Notes: generated by a model not told the origin, from the letters alone. DNA of 64,000 nucleotides from a virus (IMGVR_UViG_3300025648_000015:32001-96000); one strand, 5' to 3'; shown: positions 3,955 through 34,826, counted from the first letter of the stretch. Program-made: numbers and translations.

Positions 3955-4701
3955 ATGGCACGTTATCGTCAAGACTTTGTTTATGGTGTGGCATCGGGTG
4001 TTCTTGCTAGTTCTGCACAAACTACTATTACCGGTACCAACTGGCCAACCACTATCCCAAGTGGTTCATACATGCCTATTGTGCTTAACCCAGGTTACTA
4101 TGGTGCTAGTGGTTCACCAGAAATTGTTTATATAACATCTGCTACAAGCACTGTTGCTACGGTAGTTAGAAACCAAGAAGGCACATCACCTACTAGCACG
4201 CCTAGCGGTGGAGTAACTCCATGGATTGCTGGACCACTTATTACTGATTTTGGTGTTGTTAACCAAATCGCCAATGGTGATTTCCCATCGCCGACTGCAA
4301 GTGGACAATTCTTTGTTTCAAGCGCATCAGGAAGCAATTCACCTTATTGGTCAAACGTTATCCCTGCTGGTGTAATTCAATATGTATATGATAGTAATGG
4401 TGGATCAGCTACATACATTGCAAACACCACAGACATTAATAACATTGTACAAATTAGTGGTAACTGCGTAATTCAATTACCTTCTGGTGGTATTACTTAT
4501 GGTCAACAGATCACGTTCATTCAACTTACTAGTGGCACCGTAACAGCATTCTCCGGTGGTGCAACCCTTATTTCTACGGGTGCTTTGAACGGTGGCGCCA
4601 ACCCACAACTTAGAGCACAATATAGTGCTGCTACTGCTATCTACTTGGGTACCACAATGAGTGCAAGCCCAACATGGATCATCACTGGAGACGTAATCTA
4701 A
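3955..4701 (+). CDS. virion structural / fibre-associated protein, Ser-Gly rich
   Basis: EIVYITS...TVVRNQEGT N-domain and C-terminal LRAQYSAAT...WIITGD domain typical of phage fibre proteins. Confidence 0.65.
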   Translation: MARYRQDFVYGVASGVLASSAQTTITGTNWPTTIPSGSYMPIVLNPGYYGASGSPEIVYITSATSTVATVVRNQEGTSPTSTPSGGVTPWIAGPLITDFGVVNQIANGDFPSPTASGQFFVSSASGSNSPYWSNVIPAGVIQYVYDSNGGSATYIANTTDINNIVQISGNCVIQLPSGGITYGQQITFIQLTSGTVTAFSGGATLISTGALNGGANPQLRAQYSAATAIYLGTTMSASPTWIITGDVI

Positions 4702-4703
4702 CA

Positions 4704-6959
4704 ATGCCTATCATCTTCGGTGTTATTGCTTCGGAGGAGTCTGGCCACTTACAGCCACAACCTCCATTTATCGATACCACCTCAGGTGCCGTAGTTATTT
4801 CAGGCGGAACAACTTCTGGTAGTAGTTCCACAGTCCAAGTCTATTTTACACCAAACCCTTATGGTCAAAGAGCAACTAATTATGCTATTACTGCTTTTAG
4901 TGGATCACCAATCGTTGCAGTTACCGGTACGACTGTTACCGGCACTACAAGCCCAATAACAATTACTTACCCATTTGCTCCTAATGGCCTTTATGAATTT
5001 AAAGGTTATGCACTTAATGCCAAAGGTGCTAGTTCTTATGGCAATCAGAGTAATCAAGTAGAACCTTTTGTTGCTACAGCTACGCCGTCTGGTTTATCTG
5101 TAAACACTTTATCTACATCTGGAGTACAATTCACATTCCTACCAGTATCTGGTTCTACAAGTTATTTGCTTTCTGCATATGGTTCGTACACAGACCCTAA
5201 TACACAAATAACAACTACCGATAGTGCTTCATTCACTCTTTCAGGGTCAGCAATGACATATCCAACGGTTACTGGTATTCTTAACCATGGTTATTTTGTA
5301 GGTATGACCTACGAATTTTATGTCCAATCACAAAACTTCGCTGGTACAAGTGCTAGTGGAGCAAACATACCTTTAACACCAAACCCATTTGGCTCACCAA
5401 AGGTGCCAGTATTTACTGCTACATTATCTGGATCTGTTAATGCTGGTATCAACATTGTTGTAACACCAGACACCAATACATTAGACAATTTGCCTACGGG
5501 TTACAATTATGCTGATAGCACTGGTGGTTTTAACAATAGCGTAAGTTATTCTGGAACAACATGGACATTGATCAATTCATCTAATCCAATTCTTCCAGTT
5601 AGTACAGTCAACGTTACTGCTAAAGCAAGATCACCATACCCAGATACTCCAGGTACCCCAGTGGTGTTTAAATTCCCACCACAGGCTTCTCCATCCGTTA
5701 TTTCAACAGTTACCGCATCTGGATCTGGATTTAATTCTTCAACTGCCAATGCAACAATTACAGTTAACTGGACACAACCAACTTTTAATACGCAATACAG
5801 TCAACCAACTAACTATAACGTAGTTCTTTCTGGTACAAATGGTGATGTTTATTCTGGTACAACTTCTTATGGCCTTAATAGCCTTGCTTTTAATAATAAC
5901 TATTATGTAAATACAAATTTCACTGCTACTGTTGTAGCTACTAACTCTGGTGGTAAAAGTCCTGTTGCAACTGCAGGCAGTGCTGTTCAACCTTACATAG
6001 TTGCTGTTCCAGGCGCTGTAACTGGAGTGACAGGCGGAGCAGCTGGAACCGCAGAGTTCGATTACCAATGGACTCCTCCAACCAGTGGTGGTCCATATTC
6101 AAATATACTTCTATACACTTCACCAGCAACTACTACTCAAACAGTACCTTCTGGTACAAGCCAAGCTTACTTTACTTATAATTTTGCACAAGGAACATCC
6201 TACACATTCTATGCTGCTCCATATAATGGAGCTGGTTACTCAGCACCAGTATCTTCAGTGACTGCAACACCTTATCCAGGCTTTGTACCAATAACAGTTT
6301 ACACTATTGGAGCTGGTGGTGGAGGTGGATGGTACACCGGAGGTGCTGCAGGAAACTTAGTTAATGGTGGATCAGCACAAGCAACAAAAGGACAAACTAT
6401 ATCATGCGTTATAGGAGCAGGTGGTAGTGCAACTGCTGTTTCAACTGCTACTGCTGGAACCGGTGGTAATAGTGGTGCAACTGATTACGGAGTTACTGTA
6501 TCCGTAATTGGCTTCGGTGGTAACGGTGGAGGACCTGGAACCACTAGCAATAGAGGAACTGGTGGTAGTAACAACTCATGGTCTGGTGGAACAGGTGTTG
6601 CTGGTGCTGGTGGTGGTGGTGCAGGATCTAATGGCAATGGTAGCGCAGGAGCTGGTACCACTGGTGGTAATGGTGGACCATCTACCCCTATTGGACCATT
6701 TGGAACTATGGGACCATATAACGTCGGTGGTGGTGGTGGTGGTCGAGGTACAGTTACTCAAGGTAATACTCCATCACAATATCTACCAGGAACTGGTGGT
6801 TTCTCAGAAAACGTTGGACAATCTGGTTATGTAGCCATACGATGGGCAATTGCTGATTACCCAGGCACTCCAACCATCGTAGGAAGCCACGCACAGTCTA
6901 CTGATGGAGTATACAACTATGCAGAATGGACCAGCACTGGTTCAATTACTTTTAACTAA
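4704..6959 (+). CDS. tail fibre / adhesin with fibronectin type III-like repeats and C-terminal glycine-rich domain
   Basis: FN3-like motifs (VNWTQP, YQWTPPTSGGP, YTFYAAPYNGAGYS, VVATNSGGKS) then IGAGGGGG...GGGGGG domain; ATG at 4704 just after upstream stop preferred over 4674. Confidence 0.75.
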   Translation: MPIIFGVIASEESGHLQPQPPFIDTTSGAVVISGGTTSGSSSTVQVYFTPNPYGQRATNYAITAFSGSPIVAVTGTTVTGTTSPITITYPFAPNGLYEFKGYALNAKGASSYGNQSNQVEPFVATATPSGLSVNTLSTSGVQFTFLPVSGSTSYLLSAYGSYTDPNTQITTTDSASFTLSGSAMTYPTVTGILNHGYFVGMTYEFYVQSQNFAGTSASGANIPLTPNPFGSPKVPVFTATLSGSVNAGINIVVTPDTNTLDNLPTGYNYADSTGGFNNSVSYSGTTWTLINSSNPILPVSTVNVTAKARSPYPDTPGTPVVFKFPPQASPSVISTVTASGSGFNSSTANATITVNWTQPTFNTQYSQPTNYNVVLSGTNGDVYSGTTSYGLNSLAFNNNYYVNTNFTATVVATNSGGKSPVATAGSAVQPYIVAVPGAVTGVTGGAAGTAEFDYQWTPPTSGGPYSNILLYTSPATTTQTVPSGTSQAYFTYNFAQGTSYTFYAAPYNGAGYSAPVSSVTATPYPGFVPITVYTIGAGGGGGWYTGGAAGNLVNGGSAQATKGQTISCVIGAGGSATAVSTATAGTGGNSGATDYGVTVSVIGFGGNGGGPGTTSNRGTGGSNNSWSGGTGVAGAGGGGAGSNGNGSAGAGTTGGNGGPSTPIGPFGTMGPYNVGGGGGGRGTVTQGNTPSQYLPGTGGFSENVGQSGYVAIRWAIADYPGTPTIVGSHAQSTDGVYNYAEWTSTGSITFN

Positions 6960-6967
6960 GGAAAAAT

Positions 6968-7834: not shown

Positions 7835-7837
7835 TAA

Positions 7838-9046: not shown

Positions 9047-9709
9047 ATGTTTACTACAGCCGTAAAAACCGCAATCGTTGAAGCACTTCAAGCCGGGTTC
9101 TCAGCTCTAGCATCTGCTCCAATTGATACTAGCCTCGATCTGGTTCCAAACAGCGTAACAATTGAGTATCCACTCGAACTAGTTGCATGGCCAGCAGTCT
9201 TTGTGCAGTTCAGACCAAGTAAAATTCAATGGTCAGGTCTTAACCCAGACATTTATACAGCTGCTTCAGGCGGTATAGTTATTAGTGGTACAACTTATTC
9301 TGGAACTCAAAGTTCAAGAACAGGCTACTTTGAAGGTAGCATAGATTTACAAATTATGGCTATGCACAGCGAAGAGCGAGACCGCCTATACGATAGCGTT
9401 GCTAATTTGATCCTTATGGGTCAGGGTAGCCCAGCTAGCACAGCGTTTTTTAATAGCATTGTTAACAACAATTTGCTGGGTATGACCTTACTTTTGGATA
9501 CTTTTACCCCATTAGGTGACAGCGTTAGCGTTGGGACCCCATGGAGTCCAGAAGAATTGACTTATGAGGCTAGCATAAGAGTCCAATGTATAGGTGACTT
9601 TTATGAGAATAAGTACAACTACGTACTACCTGAATTCACAATTGTTACCGCTAGCGGAACTATGGTTGCTAACCCTTATTCTACACCAAATGAAACAAAT
9701 ACCTTATAA
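9047..9709 (+). CDS. putative tail terminator
   Basis: immediately upstream of sheath; EYP...WPAVFV, IDLQIMA...ERDRLYD pattern. Confidence 0.55.
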   Translation: MFTTAVKTAIVEALQAGFSALASAPIDTSLDLVPNSVTIEYPLELVAWPAVFVQFRPSKIQWSGLNPDIYTAASGGIVISGTTYSGTQSSRTGYFEGSIDLQIMAMHSEERDRLYDSVANLILMGQGSPASTAFFNSIVNNNLLGMTLLLDTFTPLGDSVSVGTPWSPEELTYEASIRVQCIGDFYENKYNYVLPEFTIVTASGTMVANPYSTPNETNTL

Positions 9710-9774: not shown

Positions 9775-11322
9775 ATGCCCATTTCCAACTATCAGATTCC
9801 AGGTGTTTATGTCACGCAGTCTGGCACATCGCTGACAGCTATAAACCCTACAAATCTTAATATTCTATTGCTTGCTGACCAGCCTGTCGCTGGTAGCAAT
9901 ACTGACACGTTCTATAACATCACTGCTACATCCGGTGTAACAATCGGTCAACTTACTACCCCTATGGTCAACACGACTTCAACGGGTACTTACACTTCTT
10001 TCTCTGGTTACACTGTAACTTGGGTTAGTGGTAGCACAACTGTTACTGGTACTTACGGTGTTAACTTTACTGTCAGCACCGCCAGTGGTCAGCCTTTTAG
10101 TGCTATAACTACAGTTGGAACCACAACTGGCGTTGGACTTCCAAGTGGAACTGTTTCTGTTACATACGGTCACAACTGGGCAGCATACGGAACTTATTAC
10201 GATTTTAATACACTCACCAACACAATTGGTGCTGCTATCAGTGGAACAACAATTAATAATCCAGCTGTGCTTGCTGCACAATTTGCATTCCAAAATGGTG
10301 CAAATGTTGTACAAGTTCTTCCTGTAGCTCGTATTTCATCAAGCGGACAAAGTGCTGCTACTACTACCGACTGGAACCGTGCACTTGCAACTAACGGTAC
10401 AGGTAGTGACCCAACATACCTTTCATCATTCGCTGGCGTAGACGTAATTGTCCCACTCTATGGTTTTGTTACCAATGGGCAAGTTACTGCTTACGCAAAC
10501 GGTACGGTTGCTAGCACATTGGCTGCGTACCTTACTAGCCAAAATAGCAATGGTAATTACCAGCGTGCCTTCCTTGGTTTTGATGGAACCTCTAACCAGA
10601 TCACTACTTCAGGTGTGCAATCATTTGTTGGTGGAATTGGTGCAAGCAATGCAGGTACACGAGTCAGTGTTGTATTCCCAGGTTCTATTAACTACAACCC
10701 AGGATTGAATACTAATACTGGACTTACCAACGTTAACTTCAATATCCCTGGTTACTACCTTGCTGCTGCAATCGCTGGTACTTTTGTAGGACAGACTCAA
10801 GTTAGCACCCCTATTACAAATAAGATTGTTTATGGATTTAATTACATCCCTAACCAAATTAGCCTTACGGACGCAGCTACTAACTATCTACCTTATGGTG
10901 TTACTACAGTTTACCAAAAGCGTGACGGTAACCTCTGGATTCTACAGGGTCTTACAACTAATGTAAATAACTGGTTGACACAAGAAATATCAATCAATGC
11001 TGTTGGTGACCGCTTAGCTAACAACGTTCGACGTGACTTGGTCAATAGTGCACTTATTGGTGGTCCTTTGACACAGATTACTACTGGTGCTGCGCTTTCA
11101 ACAGTGCAAGGTACTTTGATCAATGCAAAGGCATCTGGACTTATCCAAAGTTACCAGAATATTAATTACACAGTTAACCCATCTAACCCAACGACTGTAA
11201 ATATTACTTTCCAATATTCTCCGACGTATCCGATTAATTACATCCAGACTACTTTGAGCCTAAATACTCAAACTGGTACCGTAATTACGAATAATACTCA
11301 GAGCAATCTTGTAGTCTACTAG
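9775..11322 (+). CDS. contractile tail sheath protein
   Basis: N-terminal Y.IPGVYV, YLAAAIAG, C-terminal EISI..VGD...VNITFQYSPTYPINYI typical of sheath. Confidence 0.9.
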   Translation: MPISNYQIPGVYVTQSGTSLTAINPTNLNILLLADQPVAGSNTDTFYNITATSGVTIGQLTTPMVNTTSTGTYTSFSGYTVTWVSGSTTVTGTYGVNFTVSTASGQPFSAITTVGTTTGVGLPSGTVSVTYGHNWAAYGTYYDFNTLTNTIGAAISGTTINNPAVLAAQFAFQNGANVVQVLPVARISSSGQSAATTTDWNRALATNGTGSDPTYLSSFAGVDVIVPLYGFVTNGQVTAYANGTVASTLAAYLTSQNSNGNYQRAFLGFDGTSNQITTSGVQSFVGGIGASNAGTRVSVVFPGSINYNPGLNTNTGLTNVNFNIPGYYLAAAIAGTFVGQTQVSTPITNKIVYGFNYIPNQISLTDAATNYLPYGVTTVYQKRDGNLWILQGLTTNVNNWLTQEISINAVGDRLANNVRRDLVNSALIGGPLTQITTGAALSTVQGTLINAKASGLIQSYQNINYTVNPSNPTTVNITFQYSPTYPINYIQTTLSLNTQTGTVITNNTQSNLVVY

Positions 11323-11334: not shown

Positions 11335-11811
11335 ATGGCAACTTCACTATTTCGCGTAGGTGGACACTATACTGCGTTCACCTACAATGGACAGGCACTA
11401 GCCTATGCTCAGGTTATCAATGAGCGAGGCCCACAGCCTGTAGCACAACCACAGCCTATCCAACCTTTGGATAACGCTTACCCAATTGAGATTGCTTTGC
11501 CTGCTGCTTTGAATGCAGGATATCTCGAAATCACATTCCTAGAACAATGGAATGCTGAAGTATGGGCACAATTGGGTGCAAACTTTGCTAATGCAGCTGA
11601 CCTCCTTGACGTGTTCAAGGCTCAACTTGCTCAAGGCGAAGTCCAGTGCATAAAAGTCATCAATAAGCCAGACGGTACCCAGCGTAGAATTACTTACACT
11701 GGTTGTGTCGTAGTTAACGTCACAGTTGATGAATTAATCCAAATTGGAACAATGACTATTCCCAAGACGATTACAATCATGTACCGTCAAAGAACCGAAA
11801 CTCTAAATTAA
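11335..11811 (+). CDS. tail tube protein
   Basis: 158 aa directly after sheath; C-terminal ITYTGC...IPKTITIMY pattern. Confidence 0.75.
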   Translation: MATSLFRVGGHYTAFTYNGQALAYAQVINERGPQPVAQPQPIQPLDNAYPIEIALPAALNAGYLEITFLEQWNAEVWAQLGANFANAADLLDVFKAQLAQGEVQCIKVINKPDGTQRRITYTGCVVVNVTVDELIQIGTMTIPKTITIMYRQRTETLN

Positions 11812-11828: not shown

Positions 11829-12812
11829 ATGTCCGTACGTTCATATGTAATTCAATTGCAGGCAGGAGTGGGTCAAGCCATTCTTCCTGATCACCGTAAG
11901 ATGGTCCCAGGTGTACAATACGTGGTAGATGCTGATACGTTCTCAAAGATTAGCCTAGGTGCTCGTCAGAATGTTATCAAAGTTGTCACTGTTAACACTG
12001 ACCTTACCACTGCTAGTGGTGGTTTTGTACCTGCCCAAGTATCAAATGGTGTAAATACCCAGTTGTTTGGTGGAAATGGTCCACTCAGCCTCCTCGGTAC
12101 TGTAAGCAACACTCTTAGCACATTCAGCATTGCTGGTTTTGCTGCTCAAGGAGCTGCTGCTGGTGGAACCACTGGTGCTGGTGCTGGTATTGGAACACCA
12201 CAAGACACACTACTAGGATCTTTCCAACCTTACTCACTAACTGGTCCTGATGGTGCTCGTTACCAACTCGTTTATAATGGAACTGCTACTACCATTTCAG
12301 GTGGTTGGGCAACGGTATGGCAAGACGAAAGCAATGGTTACGTATCAACTGCTTCTGGTATCACATACCAAGTCAAGCAAGATGGTCAAGGCGTTTCATA
12401 TGTTATTAGCGCCAATACAACTCTTAGCGGTGTAAACGGAAACGTTACTACTGTTGGTACTAAGCAAGGTGCTTTCTCAGGTGTTGCACTTGTTAACATT
12501 CCTGCTGGTTACTTTGGTTTCACTCAAATCGAAGGTATTTGCCCATCAGTTGCTGTCGTTAGCGGTACTGCCGTTGGAACTGCAGTTGGTGTTGTAGCAA
12601 CTAGCAACGCTGGTTACCTTGGAGTTCCTGCTTCAACTACCACAGCTGTTAGCTCACTTGGTGTTGTAACTGGTAGCCCACTTGCTAATAACATTGCTGG
12701 TACAACGCTTACTACTCCTGCTTCAGGTACTAACGGTCAGTTTTTTGCTCAAGTTGAACTCCGTAGCCGCAGAAGCAAGAAGCCTTACAACCGCTTCCTT
12801 AACAAAAACTAA
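11829..12812 (+). CDS. virion structural protein, Gly/Ser/Thr-rich, unknown function
   Basis: 327-aa ORF between tube and chaperone; GV ALVNIPAGYFGFTQIEG resembles decoration/cement-type beta domains. Confidence 0.5.
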   Translation: MSVRSYVIQLQAGVGQAILPDHRKMVPGVQYVVDADTFSKISLGARQNVIKVVTVNTDLTTASGGFVPAQVSNGVNTQLFGGNGPLSLLGTVSNTLSTFSIAGFAAQGAAAGGTTGAGAGIGTPQDTLLGSFQPYSLTGPDGARYQLVYNGTATTISGGWATVWQDESNGYVSTASGITYQVKQDGQGVSYVISANTTLSGVNGNVTTVGTKQGAFSGVALVNIPAGYFGFTQIEGICPSVAVVSGTAVGTAVGVVATSNAGYLGVPASTTTAVSSLGVVTGSPLANNIAGTTLTTPASGTNGQFFAQVELRSRRSKKPYNRFLNKN

Positions 12813-21766: not shown

Positions 21767-21799
21767 TGTATAAAAAGCCCTATTTTGCCTAAGATACTA
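21767..21799 (+). promoter_or_regulatory. candidate phage late promoter giving a leaderless mRNA
   Basis: TGTATAA-N13-GCCTAAGATACT followed directly by ATG 21799, which has no SD. Confidence 0.6.
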
Positions 21800-22251
21800 T
21801 GAAGACTATAACAGTTAGCAACGGTGATATTAAACTTAGTACAGGAAAAATACAGTTTTCCACAGGTAATGCTAAGTTAGTACAAGACATATCTTTATGG
21901 CTAAAAGAACCCATTGGCACTGGATTCACCACGCCTAACTTTGGTAGCCTATTGCCACAATTGGTTGGTGGGACACAATCTGCATCAACCATTAGTACAG
22001 TAACAAACGAAATCATTCGCGTATTACAACTATACCAGGGTCAACAAGCATTATATCTACAACAAGCACAAAATACAGCACAGCTTGCCAACTGGAATAA
22101 AAGTGAAATTATACAAAACATTGTATCGGTAAATGTATCGATACAGAATACAACAATATTTGCCGCTATTGCTTTAAACACTTTGAATAACAATACGGTA
22201 AATCTTAATCTGACGATCAATAGCAACGGAGTGAATATAACTAATGGCTGA
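21799..22251 (+). CDS. baseplate wedge protein, T4 gp25/P2 W-like
   Basis: KLVQDISLWLKEPIG...PNFGSLL motif; upstream of J-like gene. Confidence 0.8.
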   Translation: MKTITVSNGDIKLSTGKIQFSTGNAKLVQDISLWLKEPIGTGFTTPNFGSLLPQLVGGTQSASTISTVTNEIIRVLQLYQGQQALYLQQAQNTAQLANWNKSEIIQNIVSVNVSIQNTTIFAAIALNTLNNNTVNLNLTINSNGVNITNG

Positions 22252-24712
22252 TACCTCAGGAGTTCTCGCTAGGCTACAAGCCGCCCTTTCAGTATACGAC
22301 CCCACCTGGGACGTCAGCGTTGGTACAGCCACGTATAAAATCCTAGAATCTGTTGCAAAAGAAATTGCTCTTGCTAACAATAACTCTGTTCTTCAAACAT
22401 ATAGTTATGATGTTAACACAAAGAATGGTATTGAATTAGATACATTTTGTAACTTGTTTGGTGTTTATCGCCAATTTGGTAAAAGAGCTTCTGGGCTTGC
22501 AACTTTTTCTGTTAATACTCCATCAACTAACATTATTGATATCCCACTAGGTACACAAATTGCTGTACCAATTGGCACTAATTATACGTCTGCAATTTAC
22601 TACGCAACTTCTGCACCAGCAATTATTGGCGTTGGTAGCACATCCGTTGACGTTCCAATCATTGCAACACTACCTGGAGCTTATGGCAATGTACCAACTG
22701 GTGCAATTACTACAAAAGTTAGTTCACTTGTTGGTATTACATCAGTAGTTAACAATAGTGCAATAACTGGTGGTCTTGACCCAGAAAGTGATGCTTCTTT
22801 ACGAGCTAGATGGCAAAGCACAGCTTTTAACAACAACATTGGTACACAAGGTAAGTATATTCTTACTGCTCTTCAAGATCCAAACGTAACTCTTGCTAAC
22901 ACAGTTAGTCAACAGACTTTCTATAGCGAACAACTACAAATTAATTCATCAATCAGTGGAACAGGCAATGCATTTACCATGCTGCTTGTAGCTTATTCTG
23001 GTATGACTAGCGTAATTAGTGGTACTACTTTTAGTGGGACCACAGTCGTTGCAAGCAGTGGATTTACCGGTTCAGTTACTGGTAGTGCGTTAGCTTCTGG
23101 AATAACTGCAATGATCAGTGGTGTTGCACCAAACTATCAAATTGTTGCATCACCTAACTCAAATACTAATACAGTCAATGGAACAGGTGTTTTAATTAAT
23201 TATAGCGCAGGTTTACCATATCGTATAATGATTGGTAGCGGTACTTCTATCCCAGGTGCAAGCGTTACTACCAGTGGCGTTACCACTGTAAGTGGTGTTA
23301 GTTACTATAGTTATATTCAAAGTGCAAACCCTGACATTGGTACTAGCGGTACATTGTCATATAATGGTACTTTTGGTGGATATGTCTACCCGCAGGGTAA
23401 TGAATTAATTGGTTCAAACCTTAATACGCCTTCACAAATAGTATACGCAAACAACACTGATTATTACTATCCTACAAACCCAACTGCCCCTCTAGTAGTA
23501 ACTATTGCAAACAATGCCAACCAAACTGCACTATTTGCTGGCAACCAAATACAATTAATTTCAGAATATTGCCCAGCATCAAGTAGGTCTATAACACTTG
23601 CTAGTGGTAATTTTATTGATATCTTTATTAATGGTACGTCAGCTTCTTCAGCAACTGAACAAGTTGTTTTTAATCCATCATTTACTTTAAGTTCAGGCAA
23701 CGCGATTGCTAGTCTAAACACTGTTAACTACACATTGGCTAGTGGTGCTGTAGCAACTACAAACTCAACAATTGCTAATGATATTTATATCCCATTAAAC
23801 CAACAACCTGTTATCAACTTCCCATCTCAGTTGTCTACATCAACTAGTGGAATAGCAGACAATATTTATCTTTACAATGTTGGCACAAGTAGTGGTACTA
23901 CTTACCCAATTGCTTTAAATAAATATCCATGGGTAACGTTTACAGGTACGGTTGTATCAGGAGCAACTACGAATGGAACAACATTTATTCCAGTAACAAA
24001 TGCCAATGGTCTATCACAGTTATACCCAGGTTTAGCACTCGCTAATAGTGCAATTGCATCAGGATCTGGTTACTATATTACACAAGTAACATCCAGTGGT
24101 GTTTATGTAAATCAAAATATTACTGCACCATCAGGTACTGCAACTACAGCAGCAATTAGCGGTAAAACTTTAGTTTACCCAATTTATGACACAACAGACA
24201 ATAAAAATAGTGTACTACAAACAACTGGCCTTGCATTTGATGTAACAACGCCACCAAGTGGTTGGCCTGCATTGCCAACACTTATGTCATGGTTGAAATA
24301 CAACCATAATTATAATAGCGATGTAGTTTCTGTAGAAACGTTGGTACAACAAAGTAGACCATTAGGAACAAACACTCTTGTTCACCAAGCAAACTATATC
24401 AACCTGGTTCTTAACCTTAGAATTGTGTTCTCATCTGGGTTTACTCCAACTTCAGTTGAAACAAATATTGCTAATAACCTTGCTACTTATTTTAGTAGTT
24501 TTTATTATCTTGGAAGTATTTCTTTCTCGACTCTTGCAGCTCAAATCCTATCAGTGCCAGGGGTATCAAACGTTAAAGTAACAAGTATTAATACTGTTGC
24601 TTTAGATGGAACAATACTCACTACACAATCTAGTGATTTTAACCTTGCAAGCAACCAATTACCATTGCTTAACGCAATTAACTTTACAGTTAAGGGAAAT
24701 AGTAATTTCTAA
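22244..24712 (+). CDS. baseplate J-like wedge protein with large Ser-Gly-rich insertion
   Basis: LDTFCNLFGVYR...ASG.ATF, GAYGNV..GAIT, GGLDPESDASLRAR, C-terminal ILSVPGVSNV. Confidence 0.9.
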   Translation: MADTSGVLARLQAALSVYDPTWDVSVGTATYKILESVAKEIALANNNSVLQTYSYDVNTKNGIELDTFCNLFGVYRQFGKRASGLATFSVNTPSTNIIDIPLGTQIAVPIGTNYTSAIYYATSAPAIIGVGSTSVDVPIIATLPGAYGNVPTGAITTKVSSLVGITSVVNNSAITGGLDPESDASLRARWQSTAFNNNIGTQGKYILTALQDPNVTLANTVSQQTFYSEQLQINSSISGTGNAFTMLLVAYSGMTSVISGTTFSGTTVVASSGFTGSVTGSALASGITAMISGVAPNYQIVASPNSNTNTVNGTGVLINYSAGLPYRIMIGSGTSIPGASVTTSGVTTVSGVSYYSYIQSANPDIGTSGTLSYNGTFGGYVYPQGNELIGSNLNTPSQIVYANNTDYYYPTNPTAPLVVTIANNANQTALFAGNQIQLISEYCPASSRSITLASGNFIDIFINGTSASSATEQVVFNPSFTLSSGNAIASLNTVNYTLASGAVATTNSTIANDIYIPLNQQPVINFPSQLSTSTSGIADNIYLYNVGTSSGTTYPIALNKYPWVTFTGTVVSGATTNGTTFIPVTNANGLSQLYPGLALANSAIASGSGYYITQVTSSGVYVNQNITAPSGTATTAAISGKTLVYPIYDTTDNKNSVLQTTGLAFDVTTPPSGWPALPTLMSWLKYNHNYNSDVVSVETLVQQSRPLGTNTLVHQANYINLVLNLRIVFSSGFTPTSVETNIANNLATYFSSFYYLGSISFSTLAAQILSVPGVSNVKVTSINTVALDGTILTTQSSDFNLASNQLPLLNAINFTVKGNSNF

Positions 24713-25668
24713 TGGCTGGTAATCTTTTCCCCACTGCTTTGCACTCTACCTTTATACAAAAGGTAAGTAATTTTCCAGATGATATTTATGATTTTAATAG
24801 TGGTGATGACCTCACCACGTTAATGAATATTTTGCTTGGCAACAGTGGTACTGGACAACTTAACAACCTACAGCTTGCTGCAAGGCTTGGTCAGCAAAAT
24901 ATAGAATTTAATAATTTAGATACAATACTTGGATTAATTCTTAATGTAAAAAGAACTGCTCCTGAAATCTATAGTTTTGCTACAAATCCTTTTATTGATC
25001 AATTGACTGATGCTCAATGGCAAGAAATCAGTACAAAAGATGCAAGTTATCGTGAAAGACTTATGGGAGCTGCAGAAGCTTTTCAAATAGGTTCAACGCT
25101 GTGGGGCGTTCTCACTATGTGTGAAGCATTAACACAAACAAAGTTTTATGTTGTAGAAAGTTGGAGAACACCCGGTTATGGAAGATCGGGCGTTAACCCA
25201 GCCCAAGAAATAGTTCTTATTCCTTTAATGGATTCTACTAACAATAGTGGTTTCTTTACTTGGGATCAAAGCAAAGTTAATACAATTTTGAATACTATAA
25301 AGTATTTTACATTTAATAATTTTGTAATTAGCTTTGGTTCGCCTATTAATACACTTACTCAAATTTCTGGAAACTACGTAGCAACTAACGGTGGTTATTC
25401 AGAATACTTTCATTTGCAAACATCTGTGAATGCAAACGGTTTGAACTCACCTGGAAATATACAACCAGGTGCTAACACAAGATATTGGGTAAAGAATAAT
25501 ACAAGCAGCGTAGCTCCACATTTTGCTCACTTGCAAACACAAGAAATAATTATTGACTTAACAGGGAATATTAATTTTGTTAGCAGTACTGATCCAACTG
25601 GTTTCCCAGAAAACAGCGTTGCTCTTCCTTCTATCCAAGTTACATCAACAGTCTATGGTGCACAATAA
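24712..25668 (+). CDS. baseplate wedge protein (P2 I / gp7-like)
   Basis: LDTILG...R, DASYRERL...GST..GV pattern; follows J. Confidence 0.65.
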   Translation: MAGNLFPTALHSTFIQKVSNFPDDIYDFNSGDDLTTLMNILLGNSGTGQLNNLQLAARLGQQNIEFNNLDTILGLILNVKRTAPEIYSFATNPFIDQLTDAQWQEISTKDASYRERLMGAAEAFQIGSTLWGVLTMCEALTQTKFYVVESWRTPGYGRSGVNPAQEIVLIPLMDSTNNSGFFTWDQSKVNTILNTIKYFTFNNFVISFGSPINTLTQISGNYVATNGGYSEYFHLQTSVNANGLNSPGNIQPGANTRYWVKNNTSSVAPHFAHLQTQEIIIDLTGNINFVSSTDPTGFPENSVALPSIQVTSTVYGAQ

Positions 25669-28600
25669 TGCCAATTTTACCAAACAATACAGACCCCTCA
25701 AAAGAATACGTAACGCAATCGGTTAATCCGCCTTTAACTATTGACGGTGTTGTCTATAATAAAATTTATTCACACACTGGTGTAATTGATACTTTATCAA
25801 ATATTCAAAGCACTGGATATTCAGATCCCAATGTAAACATTTTTAATCAATCAAATAGTATTATTAGTTTTGATCCACAACTACAAAAATCATGGATCTC
25901 AAGTACTGATTTTGGTGGACCTACAAGTAATCCTGTAGTAATTACTTACGATATTGTAAATACTACTTATTACAACAATATTGTTTTTGATGTGCTTAAC
26001 GTACCTTGTTTTGTTGAGATACTAGACGAGAATGATAATCCATTGCCCGGTTCCTCAACATTCTCAATTGCCGGTGGTGGAGACATTTACACAACTACTA
26101 ATTGGTTGCGTTTAGAATACAATGCACCAACTAACCCAACACCAGCTACAGTATCAGGTACAAATGGAACAAGTAATTTTACTTATCCATTAACTGGTGT
26201 AAGCGAAATATCTATTCGCATTACAAGGAATAAAACTGTTCAATCTAACTCGGGTAATGGAAATACTTTAACAAATATTGCTTATTCAGTAGGTGTACAA
26301 AACTTTAGTATCAAATTAATTGTTAAAAATAATTCTGATATTCCTGCCGCGGTTGTTAGTGGTTCTAATTCTATTATTACACAAAATCGTTTTAATTTTG
26401 TAGAAACATATTCTTATTCAGTTAATAGTGTTTCTAATATGTTTGTTAATGATTCAACATATTGGAAATGTGCTCCACAACCTGTAAAAGACTCAATCGT
26501 ATATTTTTATATGAAAGTTAGCGATCCAACGCCAAAAACAATTAATAGACTATACATTGATCCATTGTACAGTGGTTGCAAATTTAATGTCTATTACACT
26601 ATTCAATCAACAATTAGTGGTACAGTAGATCCAAGCACTTTCTCTTGGACGCCTATTCAAAGAGATTTTTCTTTAAGAAAAGGTTTATACGATTTACCAA
26701 CCGTAAGCTGCACGTATTTAAAAATTGAATTTATAAAACTTATACCAGAAGTATATGACCTGCCATTGGATTCAATTAATAAAACTATTAATGTTTTTCC
26801 TTATGATGTTGAAAATTACTTCTCTCAACTAGAAGCAAATATTATTGACGGTAATGCAGTAAAATATGCAATTACTAACCCAGGTGCTATTGGTGTTTCA
26901 ACTATCTTAAACCAACAGATTAGTAACTCAACTATCCTGGGTAATGCAACTGCAAATATTGGTAATAATTCTACTTTTCCAAGTCTTGCAAATCTTAACT
27001 CAACACAGATTAATAATCCTACTACACAATCTATAAATACAAGTTCATATATCATTGACCCAAGTATTAGTTACAAACTATTAGATTCTAATGGTAATTA
27101 TAACTATAGTTCATATAATGAATTCCTTCAAAGAAGATTTCCAGACAATCGTGTCCATGTTTATAATCAAGTAAACATTAATCAAACTTGGCACCAAGCC
27201 TACTTTACTGGTATTAGATACATTACTTCATTTTTTGAAAATAATTTTGATGATCTACGTGGAACACCACAAAATTTTATTTCAAGCAATGGATCAAACA
27301 CAGGATTCTCTAGCCAAGGTGTTGATTACATTAACCTTAATGTTGACGAAATTGCAGTAACACCATGGTTCTCTACCATTGATAGTTTTAACGCATTTAA
27401 TATTGGTGGTTTAACTACTGACTGGCAAAGTTTTTTAACTCAAGGCAATACAATTAGCAATGATAATACATTGATGAATAACATTAGTGCTGCAACTTTA
27501 AGCACCATGCTCATTAATGCTAGCGGTACAAAAATAGGTACGCTTGGTACAAGTACTATTTATGCAATATCTGGTCAACCTAATACTCAATATGGTATCC
27601 AATCAGCAGCGTATTCTTTTGGCAATAATATTCTTAATTACTACAACGCTAATTTCCTACCATACTCTGGATCAATTTTAAATTGGTCAGGTCTTGGTGG
27701 TACTACAATAACTGGTACATCTGTAAATTATTATAATCCATCAACGGGTCTTAGTGGCACTGCTAGCGGACTAAGTGTTAGCGGTGGGAACTATACAGCA
27801 GCATTTAACTTTACTATACCAAACGTCAATGCAAGTGGTATCCAAACTTGGCAATTGCAATTTGGTGCACCATCGTTTGGTGTAGTTGGTTATGCAAGCT
27901 ATACACAAGCCGGTGGGTTTAATTACTACTTTTTAACCAATGTCCAAGCTTCTGGTTCTACTAATATTAGTCTAAAAACTAGATTTATTAATCCAACAAC
28001 TAATAATGTAATCTCTGGAACTACTGTGAGTGGTAGTACAGTTGCTGTAACTTCTGGATTTAATATAGCTACTGTTACTGGAACTAATTATAGCACTTCA
28101 ATACCATCAAATACAATTCAATTAGTGATTAGTGGTAGCGCAAGCGTACCATATTCACTATATCAATTAGGTGTTTTCACTCAACCAACTAATAAATGGA
28201 TTGGGCCATCCGACCATAGCAATATGAGAGTTAGTGGAACAGTACGTGTACTATTGCCAAAAAATAATGCAGGAACTTATAGAGCAAGTCTTATTGGCAC
28301 TGATGTATTAGGTAACTTATCTGAACTAGCTTATAAAATTTATACACCAGGAACTATGCCAATAAATACTTGGTTCGATGTAGAACTAGAAGGATTTACC
28401 GGTAGCAATTACGTATCATTCGTAATGGTTATAAGGCAGATTGTACCAACAATTAACGAAATTTTTTATGTAAGTATGCTTGCACCATTCTATCACCCAG
28501 TGCGTTATGAATTTACTAATACACAAAACAACAATATTACTGGAAAAACAGGTTGGTATCCAATCACTCTTGGTGTAAATGATGCAAATAGTTTTATAAG

Positions 28601-28880
28601 TACTGCATCTGGATTACCAGCCAGTGGAATACAAATACGTATGACAGCTCTAGACCCTAATGTTTATGTAACTGGAGTAAGTATTATTCCACAATATAAA
28701 CAAAACTCATATTACTCTAATCTTGATATAAATTACATTGGAGTGAGTAAAACCAATGAAATTAGTTCACGACGTAGTATTAGTAGTAAACCTTATTTTC
28801 AGTTGAATTCTGAATATCATCCAGCTATTTTTAATATAAATAGGATCTCAAGCAATGTAAATCTTTACAACGTAGATTGA
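25668..28880 (+). CDS. large baseplate/virion protein, beta-rich, Ser-Gly enriched
   Basis: 1070-aa ORF at end of tail module. Confidence 0.6.
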   Translation: MPILPNNTDPSKEYVTQSVNPPLTIDGVVYNKIYSHTGVIDTLSNIQSTGYSDPNVNIFNQSNSIISFDPQLQKSWISSTDFGGPTSNPVVITYDIVNTTYYNNIVFDVLNVPCFVEILDENDNPLPGSSTFSIAGGGDIYTTTNWLRLEYNAPTNPTPATVSGTNGTSNFTYPLTGVSEISIRITRNKTVQSNSGNGNTLTNIAYSVGVQNFSIKLIVKNNSDIPAAVVSGSNSIITQNRFNFVETYSYSVNSVSNMFVNDSTYWKCAPQPVKDSIVYFYMKVSDPTPKTINRLYIDPLYSGCKFNVYYTIQSTISGTVDPSTFSWTPIQRDFSLRKGLYDLPTVSCTYLKIEFIKLIPEVYDLPLDSINKTINVFPYDVENYFSQLEANIIDGNAVKYAITNPGAIGVSTILNQQISNSTILGNATANIGNNSTFPSLANLNSTQINNPTTQSINTSSYIIDPSISYKLLDSNGNYNYSSYNEFLQRRFPDNRVHVYNQVNINQTWHQAYFTGIRYITSFFENNFDDLRGTPQNFISSNGSNTGFSSQGVDYINLNVDEIAVTPWFSTIDSFNAFNIGGLTTDWQSFLTQGNTISNDNTLMNNISAATLSTMLINASGTKIGTLGTSTIYAISGQPNTQYGIQSAAYSFGNNILNYYNANFLPYSGSILNWSGLGGTTITGTSVNYYNPSTGLSGTASGLSVSGGNYTAAFNFTIPNVNASGIQTWQLQFGAPSFGVVGYASYTQAGGFNYYFLTNVQASGSTNISLKTRFINPTTNNVISGTTVSGSTVAVTSGFNIATVTGTNYSTSIPSNTIQLVISGSASVPYSLYQLGVFTQPTNKWIGPSDHSNMRVSGTVRVLLPKNNAGTYRASLIGTDVLGNLSELAYKIYTPGTMPINTWFDVELEGFTGSNYVSFVMVIRQIVPTINEIFYVSMLAPFYHPVRYEFTNTQNNNITGKTGWYPITLGVNDANSFISTASGLPASGIQIRMTALDPNVYVTGVSIIPQYKQNSYYSNLDINYIGVSKTNEISSRRSISSKPYFQLNSEYHPAIFNINRISSNVNLYNVD

Positions 28881-31262: not shown

Positions 31263-31277
31263 AGGAGAAAATAATAA

Positions 31278-31493: not shown

Positions 31494-31503
31494 CTAATGA
31501 AGT

Positions 31504-31592: not shown

Positions 31593-31616
31593 CAGCTATC
31601 AATCTTTCCAATAATT

Positions 31617-32102
31617 ATGGATACTAAAATTGATTATAAATGGCAAAAAGAGTCTGCCTGTAAAGGAATGGATATTGAGTTGTTCTATCCATCGCATGGT
31701 AAAGCTCCATCAAAACAACTATCAGACAAATGCGATGGTTGTCCAGTATCCACACAATGCCTTGATCATGCACTCAAATATGAAGAATATGGGCATTGGG
31801 CTAATACAGGACCAACTGAACGTAGAGAATTACGTAATAAACTTGGCATAGAATTGGTTAATATTAATATTGCGTTTCTAAATAATCAATATATTGAAGA
31901 AGAAGAAAAAGTTGAATCTACTTCTATAAAAATTAAAGGACGTGGTCGTAGACCAGCAGATTGTGGGACACGTTCTGGTTATGGTGCACACAGGCGAAAA
32001 AAAGAAATCCCATGCGAAGCATGCCGTGCTGCACAGAATGCAAGCGTTAAAGAGTTTAATAAAAATAAAAAAGACAAAGAAAGTGATCCATTTTATCAAT
32101 GA
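31617..32102 (+). CDS. whiB: WhiB-family Fe-S transcription factor with extra C-terminal Cys/His domain
   Basis: W...SAC...D.ELFYP...C..CPV..QCL.HAL...EYGHW....ER; second domain CGTRSGY.AH.....PCEAC. Confidence 0.9.
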   Translation: MDTKIDYKWQKESACKGMDIELFYPSHGKAPSKQLSDKCDGCPVSTQCLDHALKYEEYGHWANTGPTERRELRNKLGIELVNINIAFLNNQYIEEEEKVESTSIKIKGRGRRPADCGTRSGYGAHRRKKEIPCEACRAAQNASVKEFNKNKKDKESDPFYQ

Positions 32103-32794
32103 AAATTGGCTTAGTAATTCCTGTTCTTAATAATTTTGATCAAGCAATAGATATGATCTATAGTGCTAATAGTGAGCATAATGTAAAGTTTTATATCCAA
32201 CCACAATACCGTTATCAAGTTCCATTAGCTAAAGCATGGAATACTGGTATCAAGAATGCAATTACTGATGGGTGTGATGTAATCATTGTAAGCAATGATG
32301 ATGTTCTATTTTCTGAAAAGACTATAGATTATTTAGCTCGTGAAACTAAAGCAATGCCCGATGATTATGTAATGGCATTCCCAGTAGACATGTTTGATGC
32401 TTTAAGTGACCCATCACAAATCTTATGGGATGATGAAATAGTTGGCGATGTTTCATACGCTGTTGAAGATCAAAGTTACGCTTGTTTTGCAATACGACCA
32501 GACTTTTTTGAAAAGTGTGGAACGTTTGATGAGAATTTTGATCCAGCTTGGTGGGAAGATACTGATATGAAATATCGTATCAAGTTGCTTGGATACAAAA
32601 CTATACAAACAAGCATCCCTTACGTGCATATTAGACACCAGACTACAAAAAAACTCACTCAACCTCTTAATTCGTTGAAGAGCGGTCAGTATTATGAAAA
32701 AAAGTGGGGAAGTACTCGTAAAGACTTGAAAGAGGTCTATGCTAAGCCCTATAATGATCCTAATATGAGTCCAAGAGAATGGAAGAATTCATGA
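32099..32794 (+). CDS. glycosyltransferase family 2 (GT-A)
   Basis: LVIPVLN, AKAWNTGI, SNDD, GTFDENFDPAWWEDTD. Confidence 0.9.
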   Translation: MKIGLVIPVLNNFDQAIDMIYSANSEHNVKFYIQPQYRYQVPLAKAWNTGIKNAITDGCDVIIVSNDDVLFSEKTIDYLARETKAMPDDYVMAFPVDMFDALSDPSQILWDDEIVGDVSYAVEDQSYACFAIRPDFFEKCGTFDENFDPAWWEDTDMKYRIKLLGYKTIQTSIPYVHIRHQTTKKLTQPLNSLKSGQYYEKKWGSTRKDLKEVYAKPYNDPNMSPREWKNS

Positions 32795-34065
32795 GCAAGA
32801 TTAAGGTACTAGCGTGGGGTGACTATGCTTGTAGCACAGGGTTTGGTACCGTGATGAAAAATATCATGGGAGAACTGTACAAGACTGGCAGCTATGACAT
32901 TGACGTAGTTGGTGTTAATTATGATGGTGGGCCTTACGATACAACTCTTTGGCCTGGTCGCCTATGGCCTGCTATTAGTGCTTTACGTACACAAGGACCA
33001 TACGGAGATGTTTTTGGTCGTCAAGTGTTCCTAGACCTCCTTGCTCAAGGCGATTATGACATCGTATTTATTGTTCAAGATACGTTTATTGTATTGGATA
33101 TTGTTCCTCAAATTCTTGAATTGCAACGTACTAAGCCAAATACGTTCTCGACTATTTACTACTATCCATTCGATTGTGCTCCACGTGAAGAATGGGTCAA
33201 CCAATGTGTATCTAGTTTTGACTTCCCTGTTGCTTATACTGAGTACGCAAAGAACGAAAGCCGTAAAGTAATTGGTAACATTGCTGATAAGCAAGATGTT
33301 ATTTACCATGGAACCAATACTAAAGACTTCTTTCCACTATCACCAGAAGAAAAGAAACAAGCTAAAAGCATGATCTTCCCTATGCTTCAAGATAAATTTT
33401 TGATTACGAATGTTAATCGTAACCAAGGTCGCAAAGATGTTTCAAGAAGTCTTATGATCCTTAAAGAATTACGCAATATGGGAGTAGAGGATGCGTTCCT
33501 TTACATGCATATGCAAGAAAAAGACTTTGGTGGAAGTATTCTTGAAATGGCTCGTGCACTTGGGCTAGATCCAAATAAAGATTTTACTGTACCAGACCCA
33601 AGGCAATTTGGTGCACACAGCGGATTCCCAATTGAATTCCTTAACCAAATCTACAACGCTAGCGATGTTTACCTTACCACTACTCACGGTGAAGGTTGGG
33701 GCCTAAGTATCACAGAAGCAATGTCTACTAAGACACCTGTTGTTGCTCCTGATAATACATCAGTCCCTGAAATTCTTGGCGATGACCGTGGTTGGAGAAT
33801 CCCTAGTGGGCACACCCCATCTCATTGGATTATTAAAGATAATGATAATGAACGTATGCGTCCATTAATGAGCGTTGAAGATGCTGCTAAGACTATTAAG
33901 CACATTATGGATAATCCAAAGGAAGCTGCAGAACGTGCAGAGAAAGCCTATGAATGGGCATCTACAAACACTTGGGAAGCCATTGGTAAGCAATGGATGA
34001 ATGTATTTAATCGTGCTACCAATAAAGCTAAGATGGCACGAAAACTTAAGGAACAGGCAAAGTGA
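32791..34065 (+). CDS. glycosyltransferase family 4 (GT-B)
   Basis: STGFGTV, NVNRNQGRKD, YNASDVYLTTTHGEGWGLSITEAM (EX7E). Confidence 0.9.
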   Translation: MSKIKVLAWGDYACSTGFGTVMKNIMGELYKTGSYDIDVVGVNYDGGPYDTTLWPGRLWPAISALRTQGPYGDVFGRQVFLDLLAQGDYDIVFIVQDTFIVLDIVPQILELQRTKPNTFSTIYYYPFDCAPREEWVNQCVSSFDFPVAYTEYAKNESRKVIGNIADKQDVIYHGTNTKDFFPLSPEEKKQAKSMIFPMLQDKFLITNVNRNQGRKDVSRSLMILKELRNMGVEDAFLYMHMQEKDFGGSILEMARALGLDPNKDFTVPDPRQFGAHSGFPIEFLNQIYNASDVYLTTTHGEGWGLSITEAMSTKTPVVAPDNTSVPEILGDDRGWRIPSGHTPSHWIIKDNDNERMRPLMSVEDAAKTIKHIMDNPKEAAERAEKAYEWASTNTWEAIGKQWMNVFNRATNKAKMARKLKEQAK

Positions 34066-34826
34066 CTCGACGTGTAGTTAGCATTACCCCATTTTATAAC
34101 GAGACGCATATCCTTGAATTGCGGCTTGGCATTTTAGAAAATGTGGTTGATCGCTTCTACACGATTGAAGCTAACAAAACTTTTACTGGTCTTGATAAAC
34201 CAATGCTTGCTAATACCATCAAGCACCCAAAACACACAGTTGTAGAGATTGAGTTTCCTGAGGGCCTTAGTGAGTGGGGCAAAGAAAATTATCAACGGGA
34301 TGTTATTCTAGATTTATCAGAATATAATGATGATGATATTGTTCTTATTAATGACTTAGATGAAATTCCTAACCCTAAAACTATTGAATTTCTTATTGAG
34401 AACTTTGATCCTGATTTCACATATTCATTTGAAATGGTTATTCATCAATATTATTTAAATAACCAAAACCTTGGTGAAGGTATATGGTGGAAGGCTAAGG
34501 CTTGCAGCGTAGGCGAATACCGTCGAGCTGGGTTTAATGCTACTCAACTTAGGTTAGGTGTAAACTCTTTAAATATCCCCAATGGTGGATGGCACTGGAC
34601 TTTTTGTGGAGATACTACATTCATTAAAAACAAGATTGAAGCTTTTGCTCATACAGAATGTAATACTGACCAAATTAAATCAAACCTTGATTTGAATTTT
34701 GAGAACAATGCTGATACACTTGGTCGTGGATACGAACTAAAACTAGTAGATATAGATTCAGATTTTTATCCAGATTATCTAAAAGATAACAAGAAAAAAT
34801 ACAGTAAGTATATCAAGGAGCTATAA
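34062..34826 (+). CDS. glycosyltransferase family 17-like (beta-1,4-GlcNAc transferase)
   Basis: FYNE..LELRL..L..VVD.F..IEAN.TFTG..KP, E.YQR, DLDEIP, GGWHW...KIEAFAH. Confidence 0.85.
   Translation: MTRRVVSITPFYNETHILELRLGILENVVDRFYTIEANKTFTGLDKPMLANTIKHPKHTVVEIEFPEGLSEWGKENYQRDVILDLSEYNDDDIVLINDLDEIPNPKTIEFLIENFDPDFTYSFEMVIHQYYLNNQNLGEGIWWKAKACSVGEYRRAGFNATQLRLGVNSLNIPNGGWHWTFCGDTTFIKNKIEAFAHTECNTDQIKSNLDLNFENNADTLGRGYELKLVDIDSDFYPDYLKDNKKKYSKYIKEL

Follow-up and report, generated by a model that had tools for sequence, protein, structure and literature searches.

Phage virions are commonly regarded as naked protein and, to our knowledge, glycosylation of the virion is established in only a few mycobacteriophages. 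In the chlorovirus PBCV-1, which infects a eukaryote, virus-encoded cytoplasmic glycosyltransferases (GTs) build an N-linked glycan at non-canonical sites on one of the virus's own structural proteins, a capsid protein. Bacterial islands that glycosylate flagellins or serine-rich-repeat adhesins (Maf, GtfA/GtfB, SdgA/B) combine a conserved initiating enzyme with strain-variable GTs, sugar-synthesis genes and methyltransferases, and act on repetitive surface proteins. The soluble enzyme TibC glycosylates serines and not threonines, including the serine of an N-S-G-G sequence (PMC4358343). In phages, the virions of mycobacteriophages Che8, Corndog and Myrna are reported to be glycosylated by phage GTs (Freeman et al. 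2023, as cited in PMC12363180). Here we consider a 64-kb stretch of viral DNA, called the window below, which comprises bases 32001-96000 of a 116-kb IMG/VR virus record (IMGVR_UViG_3300025648_000015; estimated completeness 79%). The outer virion proteins of this uncultured lake phage are strongly enriched in the short motif T-x-S-G, and the same genome carries an operon with three GT genes. We propose, at a probability of roughly one half, that a soluble GT of family GT4 starts O-glycosylation of T-x-S-G serines on these proteins.

The original prediction held that the dipeptide Ser-Gly (SG) is directionally over-represented in exposed tail proteins, on the basis of hand counts that a program recount reproduces exactly. 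The excess is real, lies at the protein level and is found only in outer virion proteins. With expectations taken from shuffles of each individual protein, the 22 virion proteins of the window contain 141 SG against 78.8 expected (z 7.9), which ranks SG first of 400 dipeptides, whereas the reverse dipeptide GS stands at 77 (z -0.2). The 40 non-structural proteins show no SG excess (34 against 37 expected), so that counted protein by protein the bias belongs to the virion proteins alone. Local composition is rejected as the cause since it would inflate GS equally, and the flat GS count therefore excludes regional clustering of Ser and Gly. In the same 400-dipeptide scan of virion proteins, NG and DG, the dipeptides classically found in turns, show no enrichment and TG is barely raised (z 2.1), indicating that the constraint is specific to serine. 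A cause at the DNA level can also be discarded: SG serines are encoded by AGY and TCN codons alike and the corresponding hexamers are nearly always in frame, which places the constraint on the protein. A longer word, [VI][VI]SG[TG]TxSG[ST], defined post hoc after inspection of the data, occurs once in each of four non-homologous proteins (those starting at 4674, 9047, 22244 and 25668) and in 0 of 3000 shuffles, and its four copies are each written with different codons, which again argues against an origin in the DNA. The VISGTT-type peptide first noticed in a putative terminator, in the baseplate J-like protein (J) and in a protein of 1070 amino acids (aa) is thereby borne out and gains a fourth carrier (4674..6959). 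All-against-all BLAST finds no domain common to the SG-rich proteins and only local similarity of about 30 residues, which excludes a shuffled shared domain as the source of the bias.

Only proteins that should face outwards on the particle show the bias: the J insertions, the 1070-aa protein, the sheath and the proteins starting at 3955, 4674, 9047 and 11829 (Table 1). SG is at or below expectation in the portal, the major head protein (2 SG), the tail tube, the chaperone, the tape-measure-like protein, the hub and the inner baseplate proteins, and the notion of a glycan shield spread over the whole virion therefore does not hold. The sites in J had been placed in one insertion between the conserved J domains; most of them do lie in inserted sequence, which comparison with the Myrna J protein divides into two clade-specific insertions (about aa 219-380 and 530-674). 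In the sheath, five of the ten SG lie within the N-terminal approximately 122 residues, a region that does not align with the Myrna sheath. The name terminator for the protein at 9047..9709 is unverified, its homology being to Myrna gp121. Further carriers lie just 5' of the window. A giant fibre of 1997 aa (G000 20279-26272, equivalent to L030:6279-12272) contains 103 SG and 29 GS, against 30 expected, and between it and a head gene are three small proteins of 234, 219 and 179 aa (L030:4266-6230; G000 18266-20230) with 8, 7 and 8 SG against about 2 expected in each; none of the three has a family match.

Comparison of orthologs shows that the SG sites are retained rather than newly formed. 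In seven J orthologs (57-70% identical), serines that precede Gly are 71% conserved against 49% for other serines, and in orthologs of the 1070-aa protein the corresponding values are 62% and 42%. Alignment columns kept in at least five of seven orthologs number 18 for SG and 1 for GS in J, and 13 and 0 in the 1070-aa protein, whereas lineage-specific singletons are equally frequent for SG and GS (24 against 21, and 38 against 33). This pattern indicates that the excess of SG arises from retention and not from faster birth, the bias being maintained by purifying selection. Total counts are correspondingly stable, with 23-31 SG in J across 21 clade members and 15-28 in orthologs of the 1070-aa protein. 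The residues that flank SG are rich in T, A, I and V and are non-acidic, and the bias sharpens when they are taken into account. T-x-S-G occurs 40 times in the virion proteins of the window against 9.3 expected (4.3x, z 10.4), and 4 times against 1.9 in the non-structural proteins. A-S-G (4.4x, z 8.1) and S-G-x-T (3.5x, z 7.8) are raised as well, and G-x-T that is not preceded by S or T is flat (0.84x, z -1.5). In the giant fibre, T-x-S-G is found 36 times against 1.9 in the helical repeat blocks (z 25) and 15 times against 2.7 elsewhere, and the three small upstream proteins hold 8 against 1.0. T-x-S-G is the component common to all of these contexts, and its clearest form is [T/S]-x-S-G. The x-S-G sequon that had been proposed is in this way upheld in its biased flanks, its conserved serine and its T-x-S-G core, but plain SG is not specific.

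The settings in which the dipeptide occurs bear on whether it has a purely structural function. In the giant fibre, SG is spaced by exactly 7 residues (29 times) or 14 residues (19 times) in a unit S-G-x-phi-x-x-phi, in which phi is hydrophobic, and it anchors the repeat invariantly in four orthologs whose identity is only 50%. Coiled coil makes up two blocks of the fibre (about aa 200-700 and 1270-1440); there are also four to five copies of the linker word GGDL(T/A)GTYPNPT and a YadA-head-like repeat region near aa 1640-1760 (a weak Pfam match). AlphaFold predicts the repeat region as a single continuous alpha-helix (segment residues 8-163; predicted local distance difference test (pLDDT) 70-93) in a monomer model built from 4 sequences, and with hydrophobic residues at positions 4 and 7 the S and G would fall on the e and f positions of the heptad, in a coiled-coil helix, a setting usually unfavourable to Gly. 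In a low-confidence model of J (pLDDT 58), SG is placed at the ends of strands, in loops and in short turns, and also, as in the fibre, inside a helix. On these models the SG dipeptide is conserved in at least two unrelated structural settings. A preference for beta-turns is rejected as the sole cause, given flat NG and DG and the presence of the motif in predicted coiled-coil helix as well as in beta-rich and loop contexts.

A broader structural explanation is that T-x-S-G and SG are a signature of fibrous or beta-rich outer proteins, providing helix flexibility or strand capping, and that the GT island acts elsewhere: on glycans or lipids of the host envelope, resulting in superinfection exclusion or in receptor masking on lysed cells, or on a small molecule. 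This is the main rival and a real possibility, if a doubtful one. It would account for the fixed heptad position in the fibre and for the positional conservation of the excess sites, which a structural motif would show too. However, the same motif is enriched in both helical and beta-rich or loop contexts, and the absence of any recognised lysogeny gene from this large myovirus makes conversion of the host surface less obviously useful, a consideration that is itself indirect.

Phages with and without related GTs provide a further comparison. The expectation that SG enrichment would accompany GT genes is partly borne out for T-x-S-G, on two independent positive lineages, and not for plain SG. 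The first controls were virion modules of Myrna, CharlieB, Finch, HRTV-9, BCP01, TJE1 and S-CBS4 with some distal tails left out, and gave SG z values of -0.4 to 2.4. When the count is restricted to distal tail proteins, the ratio of observed to expected SG is 2.32 in this window and 2.20 in TJE1, followed by lambda and HRTV-9 (both 1.48), S-CBS4 (1.44), BCP01 (1.41) and Finch (1.30), and then by L5 (1.08), T4 (0.96), CharlieB (0.93) and Myrna (0.83). The mild excess in the GT-less distal tails of lambda, HRTV-9 and BCP01 agrees with the structural explanation, as does a z of 3.9 in G004, a 33.6-kb phage (80% complete) that shares a fibre domain with this phage and in which no GT1- or GT2-family gene is detected. 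Tail proteins have a mild general tendency towards SG over GS, SG alone cannot carry the argument, and it was dropped as a marker of co-occurrence. T-x-S-G behaves differently. Among phages without this GT4 its ratio is 1.0 in G004, 0.5 in lambda, 0.6 in L5, 0.95 in T4 fibres, 0.9 in the cluster C group and 1.4 in BCP01, and it reaches 2.2 in HRTV-9 and 0.9-2.2 in four fragmentary contigs; contigs that share the C-terminal domain of the fibre are mostly fragments (9-24% complete) and make weak controls.

An out-of-sample comparison comes from five contigs of 36-39 kb (G006-G010), found by an alignment-based GT4 search, two of which have terminal repeats and are probably complete. Whole contigs were used, as loci of 10 kb to either side of distant GT4 homologs (L093-L112) rarely reach tail genes. 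The five form one divergent family, with 15-24 open reading frames (ORFs) in common at 44-67% identity; ORFs of metagenomic contigs were mechanically called throughout. They share with this phage only the GT-A-fold GT (38-42% identity) and GT4 (48-52%), plus one weak Rpf-like match in G006, and no virion protein matches at E 1e-5. The GT-A gene is adjacent to GT4 in G006, G008 and G010 and lies at most 1.7 kb away in G007 and G009; in the complete genome G009 the island around the pair also encodes a GT2, a GDP-mannose-dehydratase-type enzyme and two methyltransferases, one of which is FkbM-type. T-x-S-G, which had been defined on the window, is enriched in all five contigs, with 12 occurrences against 3.0 expected, 18 against 4.0, 22 against 6.0, 19 against 5.0 and 19 against 3.5 (3.7-5.4x, z 5.1-8.6). 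The mirror word G-S-x-T stays flat in all of them except G006 (z 2.8). Almost all of these sites lie in one virion block after the portal gene, on proteins that are non-homologous to those of this phage. At the level of lineages, the two GT4-positive lineages stand at 4.3 and 4.3 and the 11 GT4-negative lineages at 0.5-2.2 (Mann-Whitney p = 0.013, the lowest value possible when there are two positives). That the motif is at expectation in G004 and eight cultured phages, yet enriched about fourfold in two otherwise unrelated families that share the GT pair, is not what a purely structural signature would lead one to expect. A separate observation in G009, a 39-kb phage, is a gene for a Cpn60/GroEL-family chaperonin directly 5' of the glycan island (L120:9036-10622).

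The three GT genes were predicted to be adjacent and translationally coupled, and their arrangement over 32099..34826 is confirmed. The operon begins with a whiB-like gene and adjoins replication genes, with overlaps of 4 bp between whiB and the GT-A gene, 16 bp between the GT-A and GT4 genes and 4 bp between the GT4 and GT17 genes; a scan for promoters and terminators around it gives signals no stronger than shuffles. Of the proposed assignments, GT4 and GT17 pass their Pfam cut-offs, while the protein named GT2 scores below its cut-off, though it is of GT-A fold. This GT-A protein is homologous to gp015 of cyanophage S-CBS4, which also stands beside a GT4 homolog, there within the head module. 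None of the three GTs has a clear membrane span. The best sequence match of GT4 to a solved structure is PBCV-1 B736L (E 3.6e-4), too weak for a family assignment; the GtfA and SdgA profiles score 18 and 17 bits against curated cut-offs of 575 and 800, and no heptosyltransferase (GT9-type) family in Pfam or NCBIfam matches. Neither a nucleotide-sugar epimerase nor an ATP sulfurylase was found in the 116-kb record, and the lack of the former suggests that host nucleotide sugars would be used. In Tetrasphaera phage TJE1, which has the closest cultured GT4 homolog, GT4 stands beside nucleotidyl-transferase, nucleotide-sugar epimerase and methyltransferase genes upstream of the terminase (L013:5388-10731), and the distal tail genes (L080:113-4652) hold 24 SG against 10.9 expected.

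Phage GTs that modify DNA are well known from the T-even phages, and with the operon lying beside replication genes the three enzymes might be thought to glycosylate phage DNA and to have no connection with proteins. We hold this to be very improbable. No thymidylate-synthase-type base hydroxymethylase (PF00303) matches in the 116-kb, 79% complete record, whereas control genomes did match, which leaves a DNA-sugar route of the T-even style unsupported. Moreover, the fucosyltransferase, GDP-mannose-dehydratase-type and sugar-methyltransferase genes found in the islands of relatives are typical of oligosaccharide building and not of single-sugar marks on DNA.

Variation among close relatives distinguishes GT4 from its neighbours. 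GT4 is found at the same place, with 62-83% identity, in all 24 loci of the clade, although these loci were collected by the GT4 search itself, and it is better conserved across the clade than J or the 1070-aa protein. The genes beside it change from one relative to another. Some loci have the arrangement GT-A, GT4 and GT17, and in others no GT besides GT4 was found. A third layout is a variable island with a GT10 fucosyltransferase, a GT25-like protein, GDP-mannose-4,6-dehydratase-type and RmlD-type enzymes and a sugar C-methyltransferase. In the most distant members of the clade (L071:11274-12410, and likewise L073), two paralogous 2-oxoglutarate (2OG)-Fe(II) oxygenases, homologs of the gene at window 84-482, follow directly after GT4 in place of GT17. 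GT17 is absent or replaced in many relatives, and the GT-A gene is undetectable in five clade contigs, one of them 82% complete. Whatever the accessory genes, T-x-S-G is enriched 3-9x in clade tail ORFs (z 2.0-12.2; weakest in the distant L069, 3 against 1.0) with background levels in the non-virion ORFs of these loci, and the enrichment persists where GT4 is the sole GT found. The three-GT cassette can consequently not be upheld as a functional unit, because GT-A and GT17 are missing from several clade members in which the motif is undiminished and GT4 alone is universal. GT-A and GT17 appear dispensable in the clade, making GT4 the candidate initiating enzyme, and an invariant GT4 beside fast-changing sugar genes is the layout that would be expected of an initiating transferase combined with diversifying elaboration.

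In the mechanism that we propose, the serine of T-x-S-G would be an O-glycan acceptor that is modified in the cytoplasm during virion assembly. The acceptor proteins would comprise the giant fibre, its three small neighbours, the outer sheath, the J insertions, the 1070-aa protein and several unnamed proteins. The invariant soluble GT4 would read the motif and add the first sugar, a step that we infer, and neighbouring enzymes would extend or decorate the glycan: GT-A and GT17 in this phage, and in relatives the GT10 fucosyltransferase, the GT25-like protein, the GDP-mannose-dehydratase/reductase-type enzymes and sugar methyltransferases. Since the elaborating enzymes differ between relatives, different sugars would then be placed on the same protein sites. 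Such a glycan might shield the outer proteins against antibody-like binders, proteases or non-productive adsorption, or might tune recognition of the host.

Several observations weigh against this proposal. The nearest named families of GT4 are MshA, glycogen synthase and exopolysaccharide (EPS)-type enzymes, which act on small molecules or polysaccharides, a resemblance that favours the structural explanation even though the scores are very weak and have no bearing on a protein acceptor. An excess of SG occurs in phages lacking GTs, as described above for G004 and for the distal tails of lambda and HRTV-9 (1.5x), and T-x-S-G itself reaches 2.2x without a detected GT4 in G002 and HRTV-9. Conversely, the distant GT4 homologs of TJE1 (38% identity) and S-CBS4 (31%) are accompanied by weak T-x-S-G enrichment (2.0x). 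The independent GT4-positive lineages number just two, most GT4-negative metagenomic controls are the fragments mentioned, and as both positive lineages may infect similar hosts, host or habitat is a confounder. The low confidence of the J model and the monomeric nature of the fibre model belong here as well, as does the positional conservation of the excess sites. Finally Myrna, whose virion is reported to be glycosylated, has neither SG nor T-x-S-G bias, so that the known system does not use T-x-S-G. This last point, together with the very Thr- and Ser-rich composition of outer proteins in general, would fit a reading in which the GT4 island glycosylates the virion at other Ser/Thr residues or regions and T-x-S-G merely travels in the same lineages; the sole established phage system is not known to follow the motif. 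We consider this unlikely. It needs two coincidences, namely a convergent motif on non-homologous proteins in two families and GTs shared by the same two families, and the low z of TG points to serine specifically.

Glycosylation started by GT4 may not be the only modification encoded nearby. Behind the fibre-tip gene is a possible second tailoring cassette (L030:14239-17890 and window 84-901) consisting of two proteins without assignment, a sulfotransferase (Sulfotransfer_2, PF03567), a protein of Asp/Asn beta-hydroxylase fold (PF05118), a weak methyltransferase match, a 2OG-Fe(II) oxygenase and a kinase for adenosine 5'-phosphosulfate (APS). The position of these genes directly behind the fibre-tip gene would suit a motif serine that carries some other modification (sulfation, phosphorylation or a group tied to the sulfotransferase, APS-kinase and hydroxylase genes) or that docks a host or phage factor. 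This is distinctly unlikely in our view: no BLAST match to the sulfotransferase/hydroxylase cassette appeared in G006-G010, in which no search aimed at the cassette was made, and the missing ATP sulfurylase counts against it too. Enzymes of the PF03567 family have sugars as their substrates, so that sulfation would follow glycosylation and not replace it. One might imagine a sulfated, proteoglycan-like coat in which a GT4-started O-glycan on T-x-S-G serines of fibres and baseplate is extended by other GTs and sulfated by the PF03567 enzyme, fed by the phage APS kinase, with the two hydroxylases modifying the same fibre and with T-x-S-G and GT4 forming a portable writer-and-address module exchanged between phage families; as a whole this is a long shot. 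The YPNP linkers of the fibre are conceivable hydroxylase targets, which is speculation.

All genes of the window lie on the same strand and its GC content is approximately 38%. The presence of a WhiB regulator together with an Rpf-like transglycosylase suggests that the host is an actinobacterium. The tail module runs in the order sheath, tube, chaperone, tape measure, hub with NlpC/P60, collar fibre, baseplate J, DUF7297 protein, 1070-aa minor tail protein and SNF2 helicase, and is syntenic, at 24-44% identity, with those of cluster C mycobacteriophages (Myrna, CharlieB) and Rhodococcus phage Finch. The tube protein (158 aa; window 11335-11811) has one serine in all, and its neighbours contain 9-12% serine. 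The J proteins of Myrna (L025:19968-21710) and CharlieB (L026:19983-21722) have a bias in the opposite direction, with 9 and 7 GS against 2 and 2 SG (z 3.1 and 2.3). Amid the replication genes is a match to LuxC-type acyl-CoA reductase (PF05893, E 7e-10; window 39119-40183), which is unusual in a phage.

Table 1. Coordinates of features in the window, with the evidence for each; SG and GS are observed counts and expected values refer to SG.
Feature	Position	Strand	Evidence
2OG-Fe(II) oxygenase and APS kinase, the two genes that end a possible second tailoring cassette	84..901	+	PF13640, PF01583
248-aa virion protein, SG-rich	3955..4701	+	10 SG / 4 GS, expected 3.6; no Pfam or PHROG match
761-aa Gly/Thr-rich virion protein with fn3 domain	4674..6959	+	22 SG / 16 GS, expected 13.4; PF00041; VISGGTTSGS at aa 41-50
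220-aa protein directly 5' of sheath, Myrna gp121 homolog	9047..9709	+	5 SG / 2 GS, expected 1.6; phrog_2748; BLAST; insert with SGGIVISGTTYSGT
Tail sheath	9775..11322	+	10 SG / 4 GS, expected 4.3; phrog_2839
327-aa virion protein 3' of tube gene, SG-rich	11829..12812	+	7 SG / 2 GS, expected 4.3
Tail-collar-domain fibre protein, mild bias	20498..21766	+	12 SG / 10 GS, expected 7.3; PF07484 Collar
Baseplate J-like wedge protein	22244..24712	+	26 SG / 7 GS, expected 8.4, z 6.7; PF04865
DUF7297 virion structural protein	24712..25668	+	5 SG / 2 GS, expected 2.0; PF23970
1070-aa minor tail / fibre protein, SG-rich	25668..28880	+	21 SG / 8 GS, expected 9.0, z 4.5; phrog_2840; VISGTTVSGS
WhiB-like regulator, first operon gene	31617..32102	+	PF02467; 4-bp overlap with next gene
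GT-A fold glycosyltransferase, GT2-like	32099..32794	+	PF00535 17.5 bits, below cut-off of 23.3; phrog_29879 E 1e-13 (galactosyl transferase)
GT4 (GT-B) glycosyltransferase, predicted soluble	32779..34065	+	PF00534 41.4 bits
GT17-family glycosyltransferase, variable	34062..34826	+	PF04724 67.7 bits

If a mobile GT4 reads T-x-S-G, the motif would be a defined acceptor sequence for phage glycosylation, and sequence alone would suffice to predict glycosylated phages and their target sites. The rapid variation of an island of glycan genes beside a conserved enzyme would then be explained as well, and the finding would bear on how abundant lake actinobacterial phages protect or disguise their receptor-binding machinery. 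One soluble enzyme combined with a four-residue tag might in addition provide a compact tool for attaching sugars to proteins in the bacterial cytoplasm.

Each of the described systems shares part of this arrangement. The original prediction drew on animal proteoglycans, in which Ser-Gly is likewise an O-glycan acceptor, and this genome does encode a carbohydrate-type sulfotransferase and an APS kinase. The analogy goes no further than resemblance, as none of the Pfam families GT14, GT7, GT31 and GT43 of that pathway is found among the three GTs and the flanks of SG lack an acidic context. PBCV-1 is similar in that its own soluble GTs act on its own structural proteins, as is proposed here, and differs from the O-linkage on many tail and fibre proteins that we envisage. 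The Maf, GtfA-GtfB and SdgA-B islands resemble the combination of an invariant GT4 with a variable island, but their acceptors are Ser-rich low-complexity tracts or flagellin surfaces and lack a T-x-S-G word. The closest mechanistic precedent is the modification of TibA and AIDA-I by the bacterial autotransporter heptosyltransferases TibC and Aah, soluble cytoplasmic enzymes that act on many serines of repetitive fibrous surface proteins (PMC4358343); here the enzyme is instead a GT4 of GT-B fold (PF00534) with no GT9-type match, and the proposed targets are phage proteins. With Che8, Corndog and Myrna the parallels are an actinobacterial setting, soluble GT genes of the phage's own, virion proteins as the proposed target and, in Myrna, a syntenic tail module. 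The differences are that none of the three GTs has a mycobacteriophage match at E 1e-5 (tblastn, 50,697 phage records), and that the targets proposed here are fibres, baseplate periphery and sheath and not capsid or tube. The mycobacteriophage system is not known to include a defined short motif or a hypervariable island of glycan genes. Phage-encoded virion glycosylation is already known as a kind, from which the system predicted here differs in its enzymes, its motif and its targets.

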